A stretch of DNA of 15,540 bases from Nitrospirota bacterium (GTDB taxonomy: Bacteria > Nitrospirota > UBA9217): contig CAVUHW010000049.1 in assembly GCA_963741205.1 (NCBI GenBank), positions 1 through 15,540 on the forward strand, read 5' to 3'. Each line of letters opens with the position of its first letter. Within the stretch, counting starts at the first letter, position 1. Below are positions 3,649 through 15,360 of this stretch, piece after piece. The position numbers and the translations under genes were made by a program. A model generated the notes under the pieces. It was not told the DNA's origin. It searched no databases and saw nothing but the letters and a program-made list of their open reading frames with translations.

Positions 3649-5622
3649 ATGAACGAAACCACGAGAAGGAACTTTTTGAAGCTGGCTGCCGGGGCAACTG
3701 CCTACACGTTGGGAGGAGGGATTATGGCCGCCGATGCGAAGGAAAAGAACAGTTCTGCCGATCTGATCATCACGAACGGGCGCATAGCAACGATGGACCC
3801 TCGAAAGCCGGCGGCAACGGCGGTCGCTATAAAGGACGGCGTCTTTCTGGCCGTAGGCGCTTATGACGAGGCAATAGCTCATAAGGGAGCACAGACGCGG
3901 GTGATCGATGCCGGCGGACGGACGATCATTCCCGGTCTCAACGATTCGCATATGCATGTGATCCGCGGCGGTCTCAGTTACAATGCTGAGCTGCGTTGGG
4001 ACGGCGTTCCCTCCCTCGCCGACGGCTTGCGGATGCTGAAAGAGCAGGCGCAACGCACTCCTCCCGGCCAATGGGTCCGGGTCATCGGCGGCTGGAGCGA
4101 ATTTCAGTTCGCCGAGCGCCGCATGCCCACGCTCGAGGAAATTAACGCCGTCTCCCCCGATACGCCGGTTTTTGTCCTGCACCTCTATTGCCGCGGAATG
4201 TTGAACAAGGCCGCGCTGCGGGCCTGCGGCTATACGAAAGACACGCCGAATCCGCCCTGCCGGTGAAATCCAGCGCGACGCAAACGGCAACCCCACCGGG
4301 CTTCTCATCGCCCGTCCCAATGCCGGCATTCTTTACGCCACCGTCGGCAAGCAGCCGAAGCTGCCGCCCGAACATCAGATGAATTCTTCGCGCCACTTCA
4401 TGCGCGAGTTGAATCGCCTTGGCCTCACCAGCCTGGTGGATGCGGGCGGCGGATCGCAAATCTACCCGGATGACTACGCGATCATTGAGGAACTGCACAA
4501 GCGGGGTGAAATGACCGTGCGCATGGCCTACAACATTTTCACGCAAAAACCCAAAGAGGAGAAAGAGGATTTCCTGCGCTGCATGAAGCTGACCGCGCCC
4601 GGCAAGGGTGACGATTTCTATCGCTGCAACGGCGCTGGAGAAATGCTGGTTTATTCGGCGGCGGATTTCGAAGATTTCCTGGAACCCCGGCCCGACCTCC
4701 CGTCCAACCTGGAGAAGGACCTGAAAGAGGTCGTTTCGCTGTTGGCCGCCAATAAATGGCCGTTCCGCATTCACGCGACCTATGACGAAAGCATCTCCCG
4801 CATGTTGAACGTGTTCGAAGAGGTGAACCGCGAAATCCCCTTCAAAGGAACAAATTGGTTCTTCGATCATTGCGAAACCATCTCCGACCGCAGCCTCGAA
4901 CGCGTCAAAGCGTTGGGAGGCGGCATTGCCATCCAGGACCGCATGGCCTTCCAGGGCGAGTATTTCCTGGACCGTTATGGGAAGCAGGCGGCGGAGCGGA
5001 CTCCTCCGGTCCGAAAAATGCTCGAGCTTGGCATTCCCGTGGGGGCGGGCACCGATGCAACCCGCGTGTCCAGCTATAACCCCTGGCTTTCCCTTTACTG
5101 GCTGGTTGCCGGGAAAACCATCGGCGGCGCCACGTTGTATTCCGAAGCAAACCGTCTGAGCCGGGAGGAGGCATTGAAGCTCTATACCCAGGGCAGCAGT
5201 TGGTTTTCGGGTGAAAGCGGCAAGAAAGGGGCAATCGCCGTCGGCCAACTGGCGGATGTCACCGCGCTCACCGAAGATTACTTCTCCGTGCCGGAAGAGA
5301 AAATCAAGGGAATCGAGTCCGTCCTTACCATTGTTGGCGGGAAGATTGTTTACGGTGCCAGGAATTTCAGGGCCTTGACCCGGCTCCGCTGCCCGTGCTG
5401 CCGGAATGGTCACCCATAAAGGTTTATGGCGGGTATGGGGCGCCATTGGACATTCGCAAAGCCGCTCGCGCCGGCGTCCCGGTCCCCCAGCACCAGCATT
5501 CCGCCGAGTGCCACTCGCACGGCTGTCTCCATGCTGCCCACCAGCTCCAGGCCGGCATCAAAGCCGCGGCTCCCCGTTACAGCGACTTCTGGGGCTTGGG
5601 CTGCGACTGCTTCGCCTTCTAA
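3649..5622 (+). CDS. YtcJ-like amidohydrolase (Amidohydro_3) with Tat signal; frameshifts near 4258 and ~5380
   Basis: TTRRNFLK twin-arginine motif; IIPGLNDSHMH, FRIHATYDESI, FFDHCETI and GTDATRV; C-terminal FWGLGCDCFAF; ORFs 3649-4266, 4379-5419 and 5395-5622 join into one protein. Confidence 0.88.
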
Positions 5623-5686
5623 GAGAAAACTGCAACGGACACCTGTAGAACGGGGGGCTTTAGTTTTATTTGAGGGAGGAACCCAG

Positions 5687-6598
5687 ATGTCAGAAAACAG
5701 AAAGATCAGGAAAGTGTTCAAAAGCAAGCCGACGATCGAAGGAGCAGGCGTTCATCTCAGACGGGTTTTCGGAAACAGCGAGGTCCCACTCTTCGACCCG
5801 TTCCTGATGCTCGACGATTTTCGCAACACCGATCCCTATCAATACATCAAGGGTTTCCCCTGGCACCCCCACCGCGGCATCGAGACGATCACCTACGTCT
5901 TCAGGGCGACGTCGAGCACGGAGACAGCATGGGGAACAAGGGCGTCATCACCTCGGGCGACATGCAGTGGATGACCGCGGGGAGCGGCATCATCCACCAG
6001 GAAATGCCCAAGGGAGACGACGAAGGCGTCATGGAAGGTTTTCAGCTCTGGGCCAACCTTCCGCGGTCGCGCAAGATGATGGACCCCCGCTACCGCGATA
6101 TCAAAAGCTCGCAGGTGCCGGAGGTGGTGACGAAGAGCGGCGCGAAGGTCAAGGTCATCTGCGGGACCGTGGAGGGAAAGAACGGGCCCGGTCACGGACA
6201 TCGTCATCGATCCCGAATATCTCGACGTCACGGTCCCGGCCCTCTCCGAGTTCGTCCACAAGACGACGCGCGGCCACACGGTCTTCGCCTACGTGATCGG
6301 GGGAAAAGGCGTCTTCTGCAACGAAAAGAACCCCTTTGCCTACGACGCCCTGGGCGAGAACTATTTCGACATGGAGCGCGATCCCTACATCCACAACGGG
6401 ACGGCGGTCCTCTTCGGCGACGGCGACCAGGTGACGGTCTCGGCGCAGGGCGAACCGGTGCGCTTCCTGCTCATATCAGGCAAGCCCATAGGCGAGCCCG
6501 TGGCCTGGTACGGCCCGATCGTGATGAACACCGAGGAAGAGCTGCATCATGCGTTCGAAGAGTATCGGGACGGGACCTTTATAAAGGCCCCACGATGA
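5687..6598 (+). CDS. Pirin family protein; frameshifts near 5900 and 6185
   Basis: EGAGV, DPFLMLDDF, GFPWHPHRGIETITY, QWMTAGSGIIHQEMP, FQLWANLP and PIGEPVAWYGPIVMNT spread over three frames; RBS GGAGG. Confidence 0.92.
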
Positions 6599-10728: not shown

Positions 10729-11937
10729 TTATTCTTCCAGAAGGCTGCCCATCAACTCCATGATATCGGTGATTCGTATCTGTTTATCATGACCCAGCAT
10801 CGCTTCATTAACCTGGGCATAACAGGCGGGACAGCTCAAAATAAGCCTGTCCGCTTTCTTTGCGACGGCCTCATCGATCGTCAGCCTTCCCATCGCATTT
10901 GCGTTCTCGGCAAAGACCTTTCTTGCAGCGCCGCCCGCTCCGCAGCACCGGGAAGAGACGCCGTGGCTCGCGAACTCAAGCAGCTTGACCCCGGGAATGC
11001 TCCTGAGTACGGCCCTCGGCTCTTCGATCACGCCCACGCCCCTGCTCAGGTAGCAGGGATCATGATAAATCAGACGTTCCTGCAATTGCTTTTTGATCTT
11101 CAGTTTCCCGTTCTTCAGCGCCTCGACAACGAACTGCGTGATGTGCCTTATCTTGAACGGGAGTTCCTTGCCGTAAAACAGCGGCCAGTCGTGCGACATG
11201 ATGTTAACGCAGCAGGGACAGGAGCAGAGAAGCACCTTTACATGCTTTGCCTTGTAGGCGCTGACTAGCCTCTTGGTCAAGTCTTCGAGCATATCGTGTT
11301 GTCCCGTGATAAAAAGAGGGAATCCGCAGCATACCTCCTCCTCGGCGGAAAGCATCGTGAAAGGCTCGCCGATCGCGTTCAGAACCTGGACGTCTCCTCT
11401 CACCATGGGCTGAGCGGAGTAGGCGCCGGTACACCCTGCATAGTAGGCGATATCCGCGGTTTCGGCGAGCTTCGTTTTTTCCGGAAGCCACAGGCTGAAA
11501 CGCTCAGCAGCGGGTTTGTCATAGGGGTTTCCCGTTTCCCCGATCATGCCCGGTGTTTTGGCCTGCCCGCCGATGGGACCCAGCCCACGTTTGACCATTT
11601 CCTTTCTCATCATGGGCCAGAGCCTCTGCGTAAAGATGCCGACGGTGCAGTTTTGACCGCAGGCCCCGCACGTGGTGCATTCGAAGACAGCCTTGGTGAA
11701 CTCTTCGAGCAGCTTACGGTCGATTGCCCGCGGCCCGAAAAGCTTCGCTTTGAGTCCTTCGGTTGCGCGAATGAACTCCTTGAAGGTCCGTATCTTCTCC
11801 GGCGGTGAAATCGCGGGCCTTCCGGTAACGTCCTGTACGGGACAATGCTTGAGACACTCGCCACATTGTGTGCACGCATCCAGCTCAAGGAGCTGTTGCG
11901 ATGAGAGATTTCCGGTAAAACAATCCTTATTTTTCAT
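10729..11937 (-). CDS. HdrD/GlpC-like Fe-S oxidoreductase (two 4Fe-4S motifs plus two CCG domains)
   Basis: CTQCGECLKHCP and CTTCGACGQNC; YYAGCT..VCCGFP..CPCC; YHDPCYL..RCCGAGG..CPAC. Confidence 0.9.
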   Translation of the reverse strand: MKNKDCFTGNLSSQQLLELDACTQCGECLKHCPVQDVTGRPAISPPEKIRTFKEFIRATEGLKAKLFGPRAIDRKLLEEFTKAVFECTTCGACGQNCTVGIFTQRLWPMMRKEMVKRGLGPIGGQAKTPGMIGETGNPYDKPAAERFSLWLPEKTKLAETADIAYYAGCTGAYSAQPMVRGDVQVLNAIGEPFTMLSAEEEVCCGFPLFITGQHDMLEDLTKRLVSAYKAKHVKVLLCSCPCCVNIMSHDWPLFYGKELPFKIRHITQFVVEALKNGKLKIKKQLQERLIYHDPCYLSRGVGVIEEPRAVLRSIPGVKLLEFASHGVSSRCCGAGGAARKVFAENANAMGRLTIDEAVAKKADRLILSCPACYAQVNEAMLGHDKQIRITDIMELMGSLLEE

Positions 11938-12008: not shown

Positions 12009-12278
12009 TCACGTTCTCCTTCGAACAACCAGCCCTGAAGCAAGGTCGTTGGCTATTCCATAATAAACATTCGAGCCTTCTCTTCTCGTCCTGAGAATAC
12101 GCTCCATGCGCATGAGAGTCAGATGCTGGGACGCATTCGCCTTTGGAACTCCGAGCTTCTCGGTAATCTCGCCCGAGGTAAGTTCGCCCGATCTCAGCAG
12201 GCAGAGTATCTCAAGCCGTTTGGGGTTGGAAAATATCTTGCAAAAATCGACGTGCAGCTTCAGTATCTCTTTTTTCAT
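12009..12278 (-). CDS. ArsR/SmtB-family regulator (HlyU/BigR-like), atypical C-terminus
   Basis: ATG overlaps the sqr stop (ATGA); FCKIFSNPKRLEILCLL, KANASQHLTLMR and RREGSNVYY. Confidence 0.85.
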   Translation of the reverse strand: MKKEILKLHVDFCKIFSNPKRLEILCLLRSGELTSGEITEKLGVPKANASQHLTLMRMERILRTRREGSNVYYGIANDLASGLVVRRRT

Positions 12279-13465
12279 GGCAGATTGCTGAGCCCCCTTT
12301 TCATCTTCCACAAGAAATATTTTTCGAACCCGACCTTCATCCATTTCGCCCAGACTGCCTTCTTCATGTAGGAGCTCTGCCTCGGCGGAAGCACGGGATA
12401 GGCCTTCATCAAGGCGGCCGTATTCCCCATGTCCATGAGGCAGACCACACCGAGCTCGTCCGCAGAGGGCGGGGTCTTGCCGGTAATATCCGAGGCGATG
12501 GTCGCGGCAGCGGTCTTCGCCATCTTGACCGTCATGAATCCGGTCTTGGGCACTCCCGTCGGCACCGGCGTCGGCTCCGGCGGCGCTATCGCCATCGCGA
12601 CACCGATCGCAAAAATATTTTTATGTTTCGTGTGGCGGTAATTTTTATCCACGGGATGAAGCCTCTCGGATTTCCGAGCGGCATGACGGCGGGCACGCCC
12701 TTAAAGGGCGGGGCGATCATGGCGAGCTTGAAGGGGATTTTATTCCCGTCCTTGAGCCGTATCTCTCCGGGAGCAACCTCCTGAATGGCCTGGCTCACGA
12801 GCGGCTTGATGTCCCTTTCAGCGAACTCATGCTCCATGAAGGTCTTGGAATTGCCGAGTCCGCCCACACCCATGTGACCGAGATAGGGCTCCGAAGTGAG
12901 ATAAAAGATGGGGACTTTATGCCGCATCTTCCGCCGCCGAAGTTCCGCGTCCATCTCGAAAGCAAGCTCATAGGAGGGGCCAAAGCAGCTCACCATCTGT
13001 GATGATCCGATGACTATCGGACCTGGATTTTCGAGAACTTGCTTCCATGTTTCCCCGGTCTTCATCGCATGGTCGAGCGTGAAGGTGCAGGACGTGTATC
13101 CTTTGTCCGGTCCGAGGCCGGGGATTTCGTCAAAGGAAAGATGAGGGCCGGTCGATATGACAAGATAATCATAGGGAAGTTCCCTCCCACGTGGAAGTGA
13201 TGACCTTCGATCCGGCGGCATCGATCTGCTTTGCAGCATCGTGGACAAATTCGATTCCCTTTCGGCCTCAGGATCTCGCTTACCTTAAGCGTGATGTCCT
13301 CAGGTTTGCGCCAGCCCATAATGAGCCATGGCAGGGACGGAAGGAACACGAACCGGTCGTCGTCACTCACGACAGTCACGTCGCCCTTGCCCCGAGCAGC
13401 CGTTTTAGCTCAAAAGCCGCCGTCAACCCTCCGAACGAACCCCCCAATACCACGATCCTTGACAT
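12275..13465 (-). CDS. sqr: Sulfide:quinone oxidoreductase (Aquifex-like, type I/IV); about four frameshifts (~13388, ~13255, ~13190, ~12652)
   Basis: RBS GGAGG; MSRIVVLGGSFGG FAD motif, FLPSLPW, YDYLVISTG, VSCFGPSYE, TSEPYLGHMGVGG, VPTGVPKTG, VCLMDMG and FEKYFLWK. Confidence 0.9.
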
Positions 13466-13515: not shown

Positions 13516-13797
13516 CTAAAACATCCCTGCCACCTTCTCGCCGCCCGTGATAATATCCGTCAGTTTGTCATAGTCGATGACCTTGACCCGTTCATCCAGC
13601 TCGGAATCCTTGAGGCCCCGGAGCTTCTTGTCGTCATCGAGCACATACACCGCGCCGGGGAAAGCACCCAGCCGTTCCTTCTGCGAGAACAAGACCCCGT
13701 TTTGCAGCAGGACAAGATCGGCCCCGCCTTCCTTTGCGAGGGACAACCCGATTGATCCATCAGTCGTATCAGGTGCGCTCTTTATGATCACCACCAT
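13516..13797 (-). CDS. dsrH: DsrH/TusB-family sulfur relay subunit
   Basis: 93 aa; LVLLQNGV, YVLDDDKKLRGL and IDYDKLTD; third gene of a dsrEFH-like triplet. Confidence 0.8.
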   Translation of the reverse strand: MVVIIKSAPDTTDGSIGLSLAKEGGADLVLLQNGVLFSQKERLGAFPGAVYVLDDDKKLRGLKDSELDERVKVIDYDKLTDIITGGEKVAGMF

Positions 13798-13808
13798 GGT
13801 TATCTCCT

Positions 13809-14162
13809 TTAAAAGATCATCGTCGTATCGGTTTTGGCGATAATATCAGCGATCTCCGCTCCGCTTGAAATCGTTACACCCTCGATAAGACTGTCCTTGC
13901 TGACCTGTTCCCGTTTTAATGACGCGTCATCGGCATACACCGTCACGCCCATATCGATGCAGTCCTGAATACCCTCTGCTGCATTCAGATATTCGGTCTG
14001 TGACGCGTCCTGTCCCTTTCTGGCCGCATGCACTCCGCCGCCTAAGAGCAGCAGCTTGACCTCCATCTCGTCGGTCACCCCTCCGAGCGCATGGCGGAGC
14101 GCTTCCGAGGCATCGACCGTGCCGTAGGGAGGCCTTCGTAAGATTATGCTTATGCTTCCCAT
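13809..14162 (-). CDS. dsrF: DsrF/TusC-family sulfur relay subunit
   Basis: ILRRPPYGT, EALRHAL, GGVHAARKGQ and VYADDASLK (no Cys at the DsrE active position). Confidence 0.8.
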   Translation of the reverse strand: MGSISIILRRPPYGTVDASEALRHALGGVTDEMEVKLLLLGGGVHAARKGQDASQTEYLNAAEGIQDCIDMGVTVYADDASLKREQVSKDSLIEGVTISSGAEIADIIAKTDTTMIF

Positions 14163-14172
14163 GGTAGCCCCC

Positions 14173-14517
14173 TTATATGCCGAAATTGAGAAACACGGGT
14201 TTCGTCTTCACGACATTGTACAGTCCCTTGAGCGAACTCATCTCGCCACCCTCAATTGAATCGTCAGCCGCAAGACCGCGGCTTTTCATGCACCCTGTTC
14301 AGATGTCAACCTTGAGGCCTTTACCCACAAGATCCACCAGCATGGAGAGCGCCTGCGGGACCTGTCCCTTTACAATGGAGAAAACACCGTCACCCGAGGC
14401 AATAAGTCTCGCCTTGTGCCCTTTCTTCAAAGCAGATTCCGCCATCTTGAAGATCGTATGCGTATTCTCAAAGCTGTAAGGAGTCGTGGAAAGAAACATC
14501 ACAATCTCTTTTTGCAT
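14173..14517 (-). CDS. dsrE: DsrE/TusD-family selenoprotein, 114 aa, Sec73 in a UTGC (UxxC) motif
   Basis: RBS AAGGAGG (14529-14523); TTPYSFEN and SGDGV; in-frame TGA at 14301-14299 reads through as KVDI-U-TGCMKSRGLAADDSIEGGEMSSLKGLYNVVKTKPVFLNFGI to TAA 14175-14173, completing the DsrE fold; SECIS-like hairpin follows. Confidence 0.88.
14266..14283 (-). promoter_or_regulatory. Bacterial SECIS-like hairpin of dsrE
   Basis: mRNA AGCCGC-GGUCUU-GCGGCU; G-initiated loop begins 21 nt after the UGA. Confidence 0.8.
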
Positions 14518-14720: not shown

Positions 14721-14980
14721 TCATTGGCTGTCGCTCTGGATCGCTGCTTTCAATGCCTCATAAGTAATGTTGCATTTTGTCGCTATACACTTACCATTCA
14801 CGAACAACCGAGGGACAGGGCAGTTTGTCTTTAGGGCTGCCATATTCCTGAGAGGTTTTTTTGATCACGACAAGTTCAGCGTTGAATTCCTTTTCCGCCC
14901 ACCGGGCGGCTTCAAGAATTGGACATTCACCACTTTCCCATGGGATCATTGATATACAGAGTAATTATAGGTTTTTTCAT
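14721..14980 (-). CDS. Uncalled small thioredoxin-fold-like putative selenoprotein (~85 aa, Sec18); two single-base frameshifts
   Basis: RBS AAGGAG; ATG 14980 overlaps the ArsR stop (TGATG); MKKPIITLYINDPMGKW-TGA(14929-14927)-MS/LEAARWAEKEFNAELVVIKKTSQEYGSPKDKLPCPSVV/VNGKCIATKCNITYEALKAAIQSDSQ*; SECIS-like hairpin follows. Confidence 0.65.
14885..14920 (-). promoter_or_regulatory. Bacterial SECIS-like hairpin of the thioredoxin-like gene
   Basis: Upper stem CCGCCC-GGU-GGGCGG (14909-14895); lower stem AAUUCUU/AGGAAUU; loop starts 23 nt after the UGA. Confidence 0.62.
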
Positions 14981-15324
14981 CAGTCTGTCTCCTTTCGCCC
15001 GGATAGGATTCCTTTTTTCGTCACCGGACAGCAGGCCGGCGCGGGAATATCTTCTTCATATTCTTTTTTAAAAAGTTCGAGCAGGTCGGGGATCAGGGGT
15101 TCTTTAAGGAAGTAGCATTTGAGTCGTGCCATCAACGAAGAAGTCGATGATCTGGTCGACCGGAGAAGCGTCAAATGCTGGGAAACGTTCGGCTGGCTGA
15201 TGTCGAGTGTATCCTCGAAGTCGCTTACGCATTTAACACCCTGAGTAAGGTCTTCGAGAATCTTGATGCGTATTGGGTGGGCGATGATTCTTAGAAGATC
15301 GACTCTCTTCTCTAAGGGGATCAT
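14980..15324 (-). CDS. ArsR/SmtB-family regulator with C-terminal PACCP motif (compensating indels ~15160-15128)
   Basis: RBS GGAG before ATG 15324; LRIIAHPIRIKIL, CVSDF and ISQPNVSQHLTLLR; an alternative frame gives QIIDFFVDG before RLKCYFL. Confidence 0.88.
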   Translation of the reverse strand: MIPLEKRVDLLRIIAHPIRIKILEDLTQGVKCVSDFEDTLDISQPNVSQHLTLLRSTRSSTSSLMARLKCYFLKEPLIPDLLELFKKEYEEDIPAPACCPVTKKGILSGRKETD

Positions 15325-15360
15325 GATTGAGGTTTCTCCTTGTTTGAGCCGGCGAATCAA

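Follow-up and report, generated by a model that had tools for sequence, protein, structure and literature searches.

A DsrE-like protein with the motif UxxC (Pfam PF02635) was catalogued as a selenoprotein family by Zhang, Fomenko and Gladyshev in 2005 (PMC1088965), and a DsrE-like selenoprotein is listed again in PMC1794560, where Desulfovibrio vulgaris is the first genome example named, as well as in PMC9312934 and in a 2026 review (PMC13188914). The DsrE-like selenoprotein of Desulfovibrio vulgaris has the accession WP_014524487.1. In these papers the family appears as table and legend entries, and the entries state neither its function nor its gene context. Here we describe a gene of this kind from a Nitrospirota bacterium, a dsrE/tusD-like gene interrupted by an in-frame TGA on the contig CAVUHW010000049.1, together with the operon in which it lies. 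The window, by which we mean the whole stretch of DNA that was analysed, is this complete contig of 15,540 bp (C49), and it belongs to a draft genome of 4.27 Mb in 50 contigs that is 84% complete. The window protein shares both PF02635 and the UxxC motif with the catalogued family, with selenocysteine (Sec) predicted at the first position of the motif. An earlier reading of this DNA from its letters (the original prediction) had stated that DsrE-like selenoproteins were reported before, and the 2005 catalogue bears this out.

The locus can further be compared with TusBCD of E. coli (2D1P) and DsrEFH of Allochromatium vinosum (2HY5). Both act as heteromeric carriers, and their mechanism is the basis for the relay proposed below. 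As in these systems the window holds three small adjacent genes in the order E-F-H, with the candidate reactive residue at the column of TusD Cys78; this Cys78, in TusD as in DsrE, we take to be the active residue. The trio differs from TusBCD and DsrEFH in having a predicted Sec for the Cys and a second Cys three residues on, and in its Cys-free DsrH-like protein. In place of dsrAB or ribosomal genes its operon contains those of a sulfide:quinone reductase (SQR) and of ArsR-type regulators, and its host has a reductive-lineage context with DsrAB and DsrC. YchN of E. coli (1JX7), presumably a stand-alone protein of unknown function without F or H partners, belongs to the same fold family and has C-K-T-C where the window protein has U-T-G-C. 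There is also a likeness to Tso neighbourhoods, as a TsoC-like gene with a putative Sec codon stands just upstream of dsrE in the window, and TsoY follows the trio in one relative (locus L083). TsoC and TsoY were reportedly defined by Haft and Tolstoy in 2025 (mSystems).

We found no paper joining selenocysteine, DsrE and DsrH in the searchable literature, a point on which the 2025 paper may bear, and in the papers found on selenoproteins in Thermodesulfovibrio no title or abstract pointed to this gene. The gene family itself is already known; what was not found in the searchable literature is the Sec-containing DsrEFH-like trio beside SQR.

Conserved in-frame UGA codon in a dsrE-like gene

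On the minus strand an open reading frame (ORF) starts with ATG at 14517 and runs for 72 codons to a TGA at 14301-14299 (codon 73). The same frame continues past the TGA for 41 further sense codons up to a TAA at 14175-14173, which gives a protein of 114 amino acids (aa), and this TAA lies 10 nucleotides (nt) ahead of the dsrF-like ATG at 14162. In the read-through translation the residues around the TGA are VDI-U-TGC-MKSRG. The 72-aa ORF, the position of its TGA, the further codons, the short gap to dsrF and the motif had all been described in the original prediction, and each is present in the sequence. The features of the gene, including a hairpin that resembles a selenocysteine insertion sequence (SECIS), are as follows.

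14173..14517, minus strand: dsrE/tusD-like gene, predicted selenoprotein gene, 114 codons and TAA (read-through translation, Pfam DsrE, orthologues)
14299..14301, minus strand: UGA codon 73, predicted to be read as selenocysteine in U-T-G-C (TGA column in 80 loci, alignment to TusD Cys78)
14266..14283, minus strand: SECIS-like hairpin, stem AGCCGC/GCGGCU, loop GGUCUU (sequence, centroid fold, covariation)

To follow the TGA across relatives we searched genomes in six frames with the read-through protein. A dsrE-like gene was detected in 51 of 61 related genomes. Exactly one TGA was found in all seven orthologues at 73-95% identity, and the same holds for every full-length match (spanning residues 1-113 or 1-114 of the query) to a sister form that is 40-47% identical; a stop-free dsrE-like form was seen in two of the genomes. 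When 20 loci from relatives were aligned, the TGA fell in one column in 18 and the other two had Cys there, within a C-G-T-C motif. The same pattern was found at 80 loci from a collection of species-representative genomes, where the column holds TGA in 78 and TGC (Cys) in two, namely Moorella naiadis and a metagenome-assembled genome (MAG) of the Chloroflexi. Among 401 sampled genomes of the phylum 124 gave a match (E <= 1e-15), and almost every full-length match carried one TGA; the only stop-free full-length matches came from G046, G054, G062 and G078, all of one family. The relatives carrying the gene are Nitrospirota, chiefly Thermodesulfovibrionales, Candidatus Sulfobium and Dissulfurispiraceae.

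Orthologues are 68-95% identical across residues 1-114; the homologue search suggested with the original prediction gave what had been anticipated, TGA or Cys at the column and conservation on both sides of it. In 57 distinct orthologues of 114 codons the minor-allele fractions at codon positions 1, 2 and 3 were 0.108, 0.05 and 0.357 after the TGA, and 0.08, 0.048 and 0.471 before it. As the variation concentrates at third positions, just as it does before the TGA, the codons past the TGA evolve as coding sequence.

The possibility that TGA is a sense codon under a non-standard code was ruled out, since TGA terminates sqr in the window, in the relative L028 and in most other relatives, and also terminates eight of ten sister-form dsrE genes. 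Because of the TGA column, the coding signature and the TGA stops elsewhere, sequencing error, nonsense mutation and a variant code are excluded for practical purposes. From these sequence comparisons we consider it almost certain that the UGA is a real Sec codon in a protein of the DsrE family.

A SECIS-like hairpin downstream of the UGA

The stem of the hairpin has six base pairs (14283-14278 with 14271-14266) and encloses the loop GGUCUU (14277-14272). It begins 15 nt past the UGA and its loop 21 nt past the UGA, while the E. coli fdhF element (K-12 record) has its GGUC loop 18 nt past its UGA. The original prediction of a perfect 6-bp stem with an fdhF-like GGUC-type loop 21 nt downstream thus describes the sequence correctly, and it is backed by covariation.

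For this comparison we used 57 orthologues, comprising 52 distinct sequences, and 500 shuffles. The share of paired stem cells was 91% (83.6% in shuffles) and the covariation score 0.193 (0.076 in shuffles); none of the 500 shuffles reached either value. Sliding the partners by 1-3 columns reduced the pairing to 29-46%. Among the 52 distinct sequences three core pairs are invariant, whereas the pair 20-35 is GC in 21, CG in 18, UA in three, GU in one and unpaired in nine, and the closing pair 24-31 is CG in 48, UA in two, AU in one and UG in one. The compensating substitutions are not silent in the protein (Ser/Thr/Leu on one side, Ala/Gly/Asp on the other), and therefore the pairing is kept at the RNA level. 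In the loop, the codons GGU and CUU hardly vary at their third positions. It should be noted that another hairpin (UUUCGCC-GUGC-GGCGAAA) stands equally far from the UGA in the 118-aa sister form, and that the Cys forms L015 and L016 have no such hairpin. What supports the hairpin is its conservation and covariation across sequences, not its energy.

Family membership and active site

The read-through protein matches Pfam DsrE (PF02635) with 50.2 bits (cut-off 22.7) over residues 5-106, a match that spans the TGA. Its UxxC motif is U73-T-G-C76, with C76 invariant in 16 sequences. Aligning a 16-member family profile with E. coli TusD by hhalign placed U73 on Cys78 and R80-G81 on R85-G86, in an alignment that is weak overall (expect value E 0.038, probability 1.4%). 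The proposed position of the Sec, equivalent to TusD Cys78, thereby gains support from this profile alignment and from the Sec/Cys column.

In a profile search of solved structures the closest was YchN (1JX7, E 1.9e-7), whose C-K-T-C falls on U-T-G-C; further matches were DsrE (2hy5_A, E 0.0038), DsrF (2hy5_B, E 0.099) and TusC (2d1p_B, E 0.23). A structure search with the single sequence gave designer pentatricopeptide repeat proteins, through repeats resembling 'KGLKVDI', and these we judged spurious. The AlphaFold2 model (mean predicted local distance difference test score, pLDDT, 82.8) has the alternating order of strands and helices expected of the fold, with residue 73 as the last of strand 69-73, at the point where helix 74-79 begins. 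As the DsrF-like protein is without Cys at this column and the DsrH-like protein has none at all, Sec73/Cys76 is the sole candidate reactive site of the trio.

Operon and neighbouring genes

The trio consists of adjacent genes with Pfam matches DsrE, DsrE and DsrH in E-F-H order, and all three are intact in the window. The remaining features of the operon are listed below.

14980..15360, minus strand: ArsR/BigR-like regulator, first gene of the operon (Pfam HTH_5)
14721..14980, minus strand: TsoC-like small gene, a candidate for a selenoprotein, TGA in frame at 14929-14927 (translations of the window and of four relatives in three frames)
13809..14162, minus strand: dsrF/tusC-like gene, 117 aa (Pfam DsrE 59.1 bits), without Cys at the active-site column
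13516..13797, minus strand: dsrH/tusB-like gene, 93 aa (Pfam DsrH 38.6 bits, cut-off 24.4), without any Cys
12275..13465, minus strand: sulfide:quinone reductase-like flavoprotein gene, sqr (three-frame translation, DNA alignment to orthologues)
12009..12344, minus strand: second ArsR-family regulator, overlapping the sqr end (Pfam HTH_5 44.9 bits; same place in the relatives L027 and L031)

Neighbours were counted at the 80 dsrE loci, some of which end at contig ends. DsrF follows dsrE at 78 loci and DsrH is found at 74, the four loci with dsrF and no dsrH being cut by contig ends. An ArsR-family gene lies upstream of dsrE at 67 loci and an SQR-like flavoprotein after dsrH at 55, while DsrE2-like (PF13686) and TauE genes occur at 11 and two loci, respectively. 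The order ArsR, dsrE(Sec), dsrF, dsrH and usually sqr is a conserved operon of the Thermodesulfovibrionia. The original prediction regarded Sec within a full E-F-H trio beside sqr as the unusual part of the finding; as these counts and the matches in 124 of 401 phylum genomes demonstrate, the trio beside sqr is instead the usual arrangement of the lineage. On NCBIfam the upstream ArsR protein scores 54.6 bits with HTH_metalloreg and 40.8 bits with BigR, both under the cut-offs, and an intact SQR orthologue reaches 101 bits with NF049943, under its cut-off of 525.

The TsoC-like gene encodes a protein of about 85 aa with the motif NDPMGKW-U, and has two frame breaks in the window. The same in-frame TGA is present in the TsoC-like gene of L028, L031 and L034; the gene is absent in L029, and its slot in L027 is taken by a different small gene. 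The L031 copy scores 42.3 bits with NF045708 seleno_TsoC ('NEPxGxxU motif selenoprotein TsoC'), for which the cut-off is 45. Judging by these features it is a second candidate selenoprotein gene of the window.

The DsrE-DsrF pair occurs in two versions, as a comparison of the loci L008-L014 with L017-L026 shows: one DsrE has 114 aa and the other 118 aa, the two are about 45% identical and each has its own hairpin. Even where two loci share no more than about 45% in DsrE and DsrF, their DsrH and SQR are 75-93% identical, which suggests that the E-F pair may have been replaced within one operon frame.

Two other loci depart from the usual arrangement. Moorella naiadis (L105, 1245-4575) has NifS-like, SelD, DsrE(Cys), F and H genes in this order; its selD scores 326.9 bits (cut-off 125), and by the model the listed ORF is without the first 50 or so codons. 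The arrangement raises the possibility of a link between the trio and selenium activation. In L083, from a Thermodesulfovibrio yellowstonii MAG, TsoY (449.5 bits, cut-off 250) and a DsrE2-like gene follow the trio at 4602-6218 in place of SQR, and a NifS-like gene lies upstream on the opposite strand.

Beyond the second ArsR gene the window holds a gene for an HdrD/GlpC-like CCG-domain iron-sulfur protein (10729-11937, minus strand) and further on one for a cytochrome P460 (8516-9199, plus strand). Neither is beside the operon in the relatives examined.

Selenocysteine machinery

The genome encodes selA (531.1 bits) and selB (371.6 bits), which are adjacent, and selD (352.4 bits), which carries an in-frame TGA of its own and lies on another contig than dsrE. 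A frame break near the 3' end of selA is consistent with an assembly indel. Two tRNA(UCA) genes exceed the Rfam tRNA-Sec cut-off of 47 bits. The one on contig C45 has G73 and is a canonical tRNA-Sec with 63.5 bits; the other, on C30, is treated below. The genome further encodes DsrC (164.6 bits) and DsrAB, and DsrC is a possible sulfur acceptor.

Proposed function and alternative explanations

Placing Sec at the catalytic column is supported by the Sec/Cys column, the conservation on both sides, the covarying hairpin, the Sec machinery and the TusD alignment. The best explanation, which we hold with good though not full confidence, is that the gene encodes a Sec-bearing DsrE/TusD-like subunit of a predicted DsrEFH/TusBCD-like sulfur-carrier complex, Sec replacing the persulfide Cys. 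With less assurance, and by analogy with the known carriers, we lean somewhat towards an SQR-linked sulfane-sulfur relay as its role.

Such a relay might work in the following way. SelB and Sec-tRNA(Sec) would decode the UGA with the assistance of the hairpin, and the E, F and H proteins would assemble into a TusBCD-like heteromer. Sec73, which has Cys76 three residues further along, would attack a sulfane-sulfur donor and bind its sulfur in a selenosulfide. The donor may be the persulfide or polysulfide made by the SQR of the operon, or a NifS-type persulfide where sqr is absent. The selenosulfide could then be resolved by Cys76 or an external thiol, and the sulfur passed to an acceptor, either DsrC or of TusA type. 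The operon would be controlled by the ArsR/BigR-type repressors, and this would fit a persulfide-responsive regulation, as far as their sub-threshold family match can indicate.

Several observations weigh against this reading, and some of them feed the rival explanations below. The hairpin is a short one with an unremarkable folding energy (z -0.16 and -0.10 for the region); 19 of the 52 distinct sequences leave the bottom pair unpaired and nine the pair 20-35, and the Rfam scan of the region gave no family match, only two sub-threshold chance matches. NCBIfam release 20 includes TsoC, TsoY and Sec-type SQR models, and neither these nor any other model of the release matches the window DsrE-like protein at E <= 0.01. 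The dsrF-like protein scores 35.7 bits with TIGR03010 (equivalog cut-off 94.15) and the dsrH-like protein 36.8 bits with TIGR03011 (equivalog cut-off 49.2); as F and H score under the equivalog cut-offs for TusC/DsrF and TusB/DsrH, the proper wording is 'DsrEFH-like', not DsrEFH. To these we add the overall weakness of the TusD alignment, and the 25 of 80 loci with no SQR in the DNA examined, some of them cut by contig ends.

The state of the window sqr also belongs here. Compared with four intact 396-aa orthologues it has four single-base indels, near 13383, 13262, 13192 and 12653, of which at least three are in short homopolymer runs. Frame breaks are also found in rpoC, selA and dsrA, and rpoB is intact. 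Two of the four sqr sites could be compared with contigs from four other runs, which come from relatives 90-99% alike and not from this strain (each run contained at most 0.15 of the sampled words): these contigs are without the additional base of the window at 13192, and near 13394 they have one C more. The sqr indels are probably errors of the assembly consensus; the less probable alternative is that sqr is truly decaying in this strain. The frameshifts prompted us to consider the whole operon as a pseudogene, a reading that the TGA/Cys column and the coding signature rule out for dsrE.

The strongest competing view of the function is that selenium is trafficked towards SelD. Here the trio would be a selenium carrier, taking selenium from a NifS-like lyase or selenide and handing it to SelD or to neighbouring selenoproteins, with the link to SQR secondary. 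The DsrE-like domain also occurs in YedF, which PMC5322559 links to selenium use. Selenium-linked genes are indeed found as neighbours in the 80 loci (TsoC-like in seven, NifS-like desulfurase in six, SelD within 3.5 kb in five and TsoY in one): the Cys form of Moorella naiadis comes directly after a NifS-like gene and selD, the TsoC-like gene is just upstream in the window, and TsoY comes after the trio in L083. However, SQR and ArsR/BigR-like genes are by far the commonest neighbours, and the selD of this genome sits on another contig. Moreover, NifS-like desulfurases are the normal sulfur donors of Tus-type relays as well. Neighbour genes alone cannot separate a sulfur carrier from a selenium carrier, and weighing all of this we find the selenium carrier improbable.

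A second rival concerns the residue and not the cargo. The UGA could be read as Cys by a selC*-type tRNA-Cys, wholly or when selenium is short, which would make residue 73 a Cys at least part of the time. The C30 tRNA(UCA) (C30:27057-27151, locus L117) reaches 57.8 bits on Rfam tRNA-Sec; its variable arm is long and its discriminator is U73, the base that cysteine tRNAs have there. On one side it has the gene of a LysR-type regulator, on the other that of a YedF-like protein with TusA and DsrE domains. Mukai et al. (PMC5389517) report that Thermodesulfovibrio and Nitrospirae have selC* tRNA-Cys genes, and demonstrate UGA-to-Cys decoding for a deltaproteobacterial selC* tRNA. By its sequence features the C30 tRNA fits this class, and as such it could put Cys at the dsrE UGA. 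Against this, the genome has the canonical G73 tRNA-Sec along with full-length matches to selA (with its frame break), selB and selD, and the near-universal retention of TGA and hairpin instead of a cheap TGC points to Sec as the selected residue. Decoding as Cys therefore appears very unlikely to us.

Lastly, that the TGA is a true stop (nonsense mutation, sequencing error or operon decay) leaving a 72-aa stub is hardly credible: the assembly does have indels and broken genes (sqr with four, the TsoC-like gene with two, rpoC, selA and dsrA) and public databases do annotate the orthologues at 72 aa, but the same TGA recurs in 78 of 80 independent assemblies, the sequence downstream keeps 68-95% identity with coding-type third-position bias, the Pfam DsrE match crosses the TGA, and the assembly faults here are indels, not substitutions.

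Annotation and significance

The reading we prefer, a Sec-bearing DsrE/TusD-like subunit, has consequences for annotation. In a protein-database search all matches among those listed (120 of 282) cover 61-63% of the protein; nearly all of them are 72-aa entries, and those that bear a name are called 'DsrE family protein' or 'TusD component'. Gene callers shorten the gene at the Sec codon, and the carrier appears incomplete in Nitrospirota. The dsrEFH genes are a widely used marker of oxidative sulfur metabolism. A 2024 survey of Nitrospirota (PMC11033732) reports that the majority of Thermodesulfovibrionia carrying dsrAB of the reductive type 'possess dsrFH, but no dsrE'. The gene absent from that survey is probably this one, cut at its Sec codon.

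With the annotation corrected, the metabolism reconstructed for these widespread anaerobes changes. The uncharacterised 'DsrE-like selenoprotein' also gains a context, i.e. an E-F-H trio with SQR under ArsR/BigR-type control, and the Sec and Cys forms make up a natural Sec/Cys pair at a persulfide-carrier site.

Further, we speculate, as an idea that we regard as rather unlikely at present, that the Sec trio is the 'missing' DsrEFH of the reductive-DsrAB Thermodesulfovibrionia and delivers sulfane sulfur from SQR to DsrC, in an oxidative part of the Dsr pathway or in sulfur disproportionation that depends on selenium, with the selC*-type tRNA-Cys as a fallback. If this were true, part of the Dsr pathway could operate oxidatively in supposed sulfate reducers, or they could disproportionate sulfur, in either case depending on their selenium supply, and the selC*-type tRNA-Cys would serve them when selenium is scarce.

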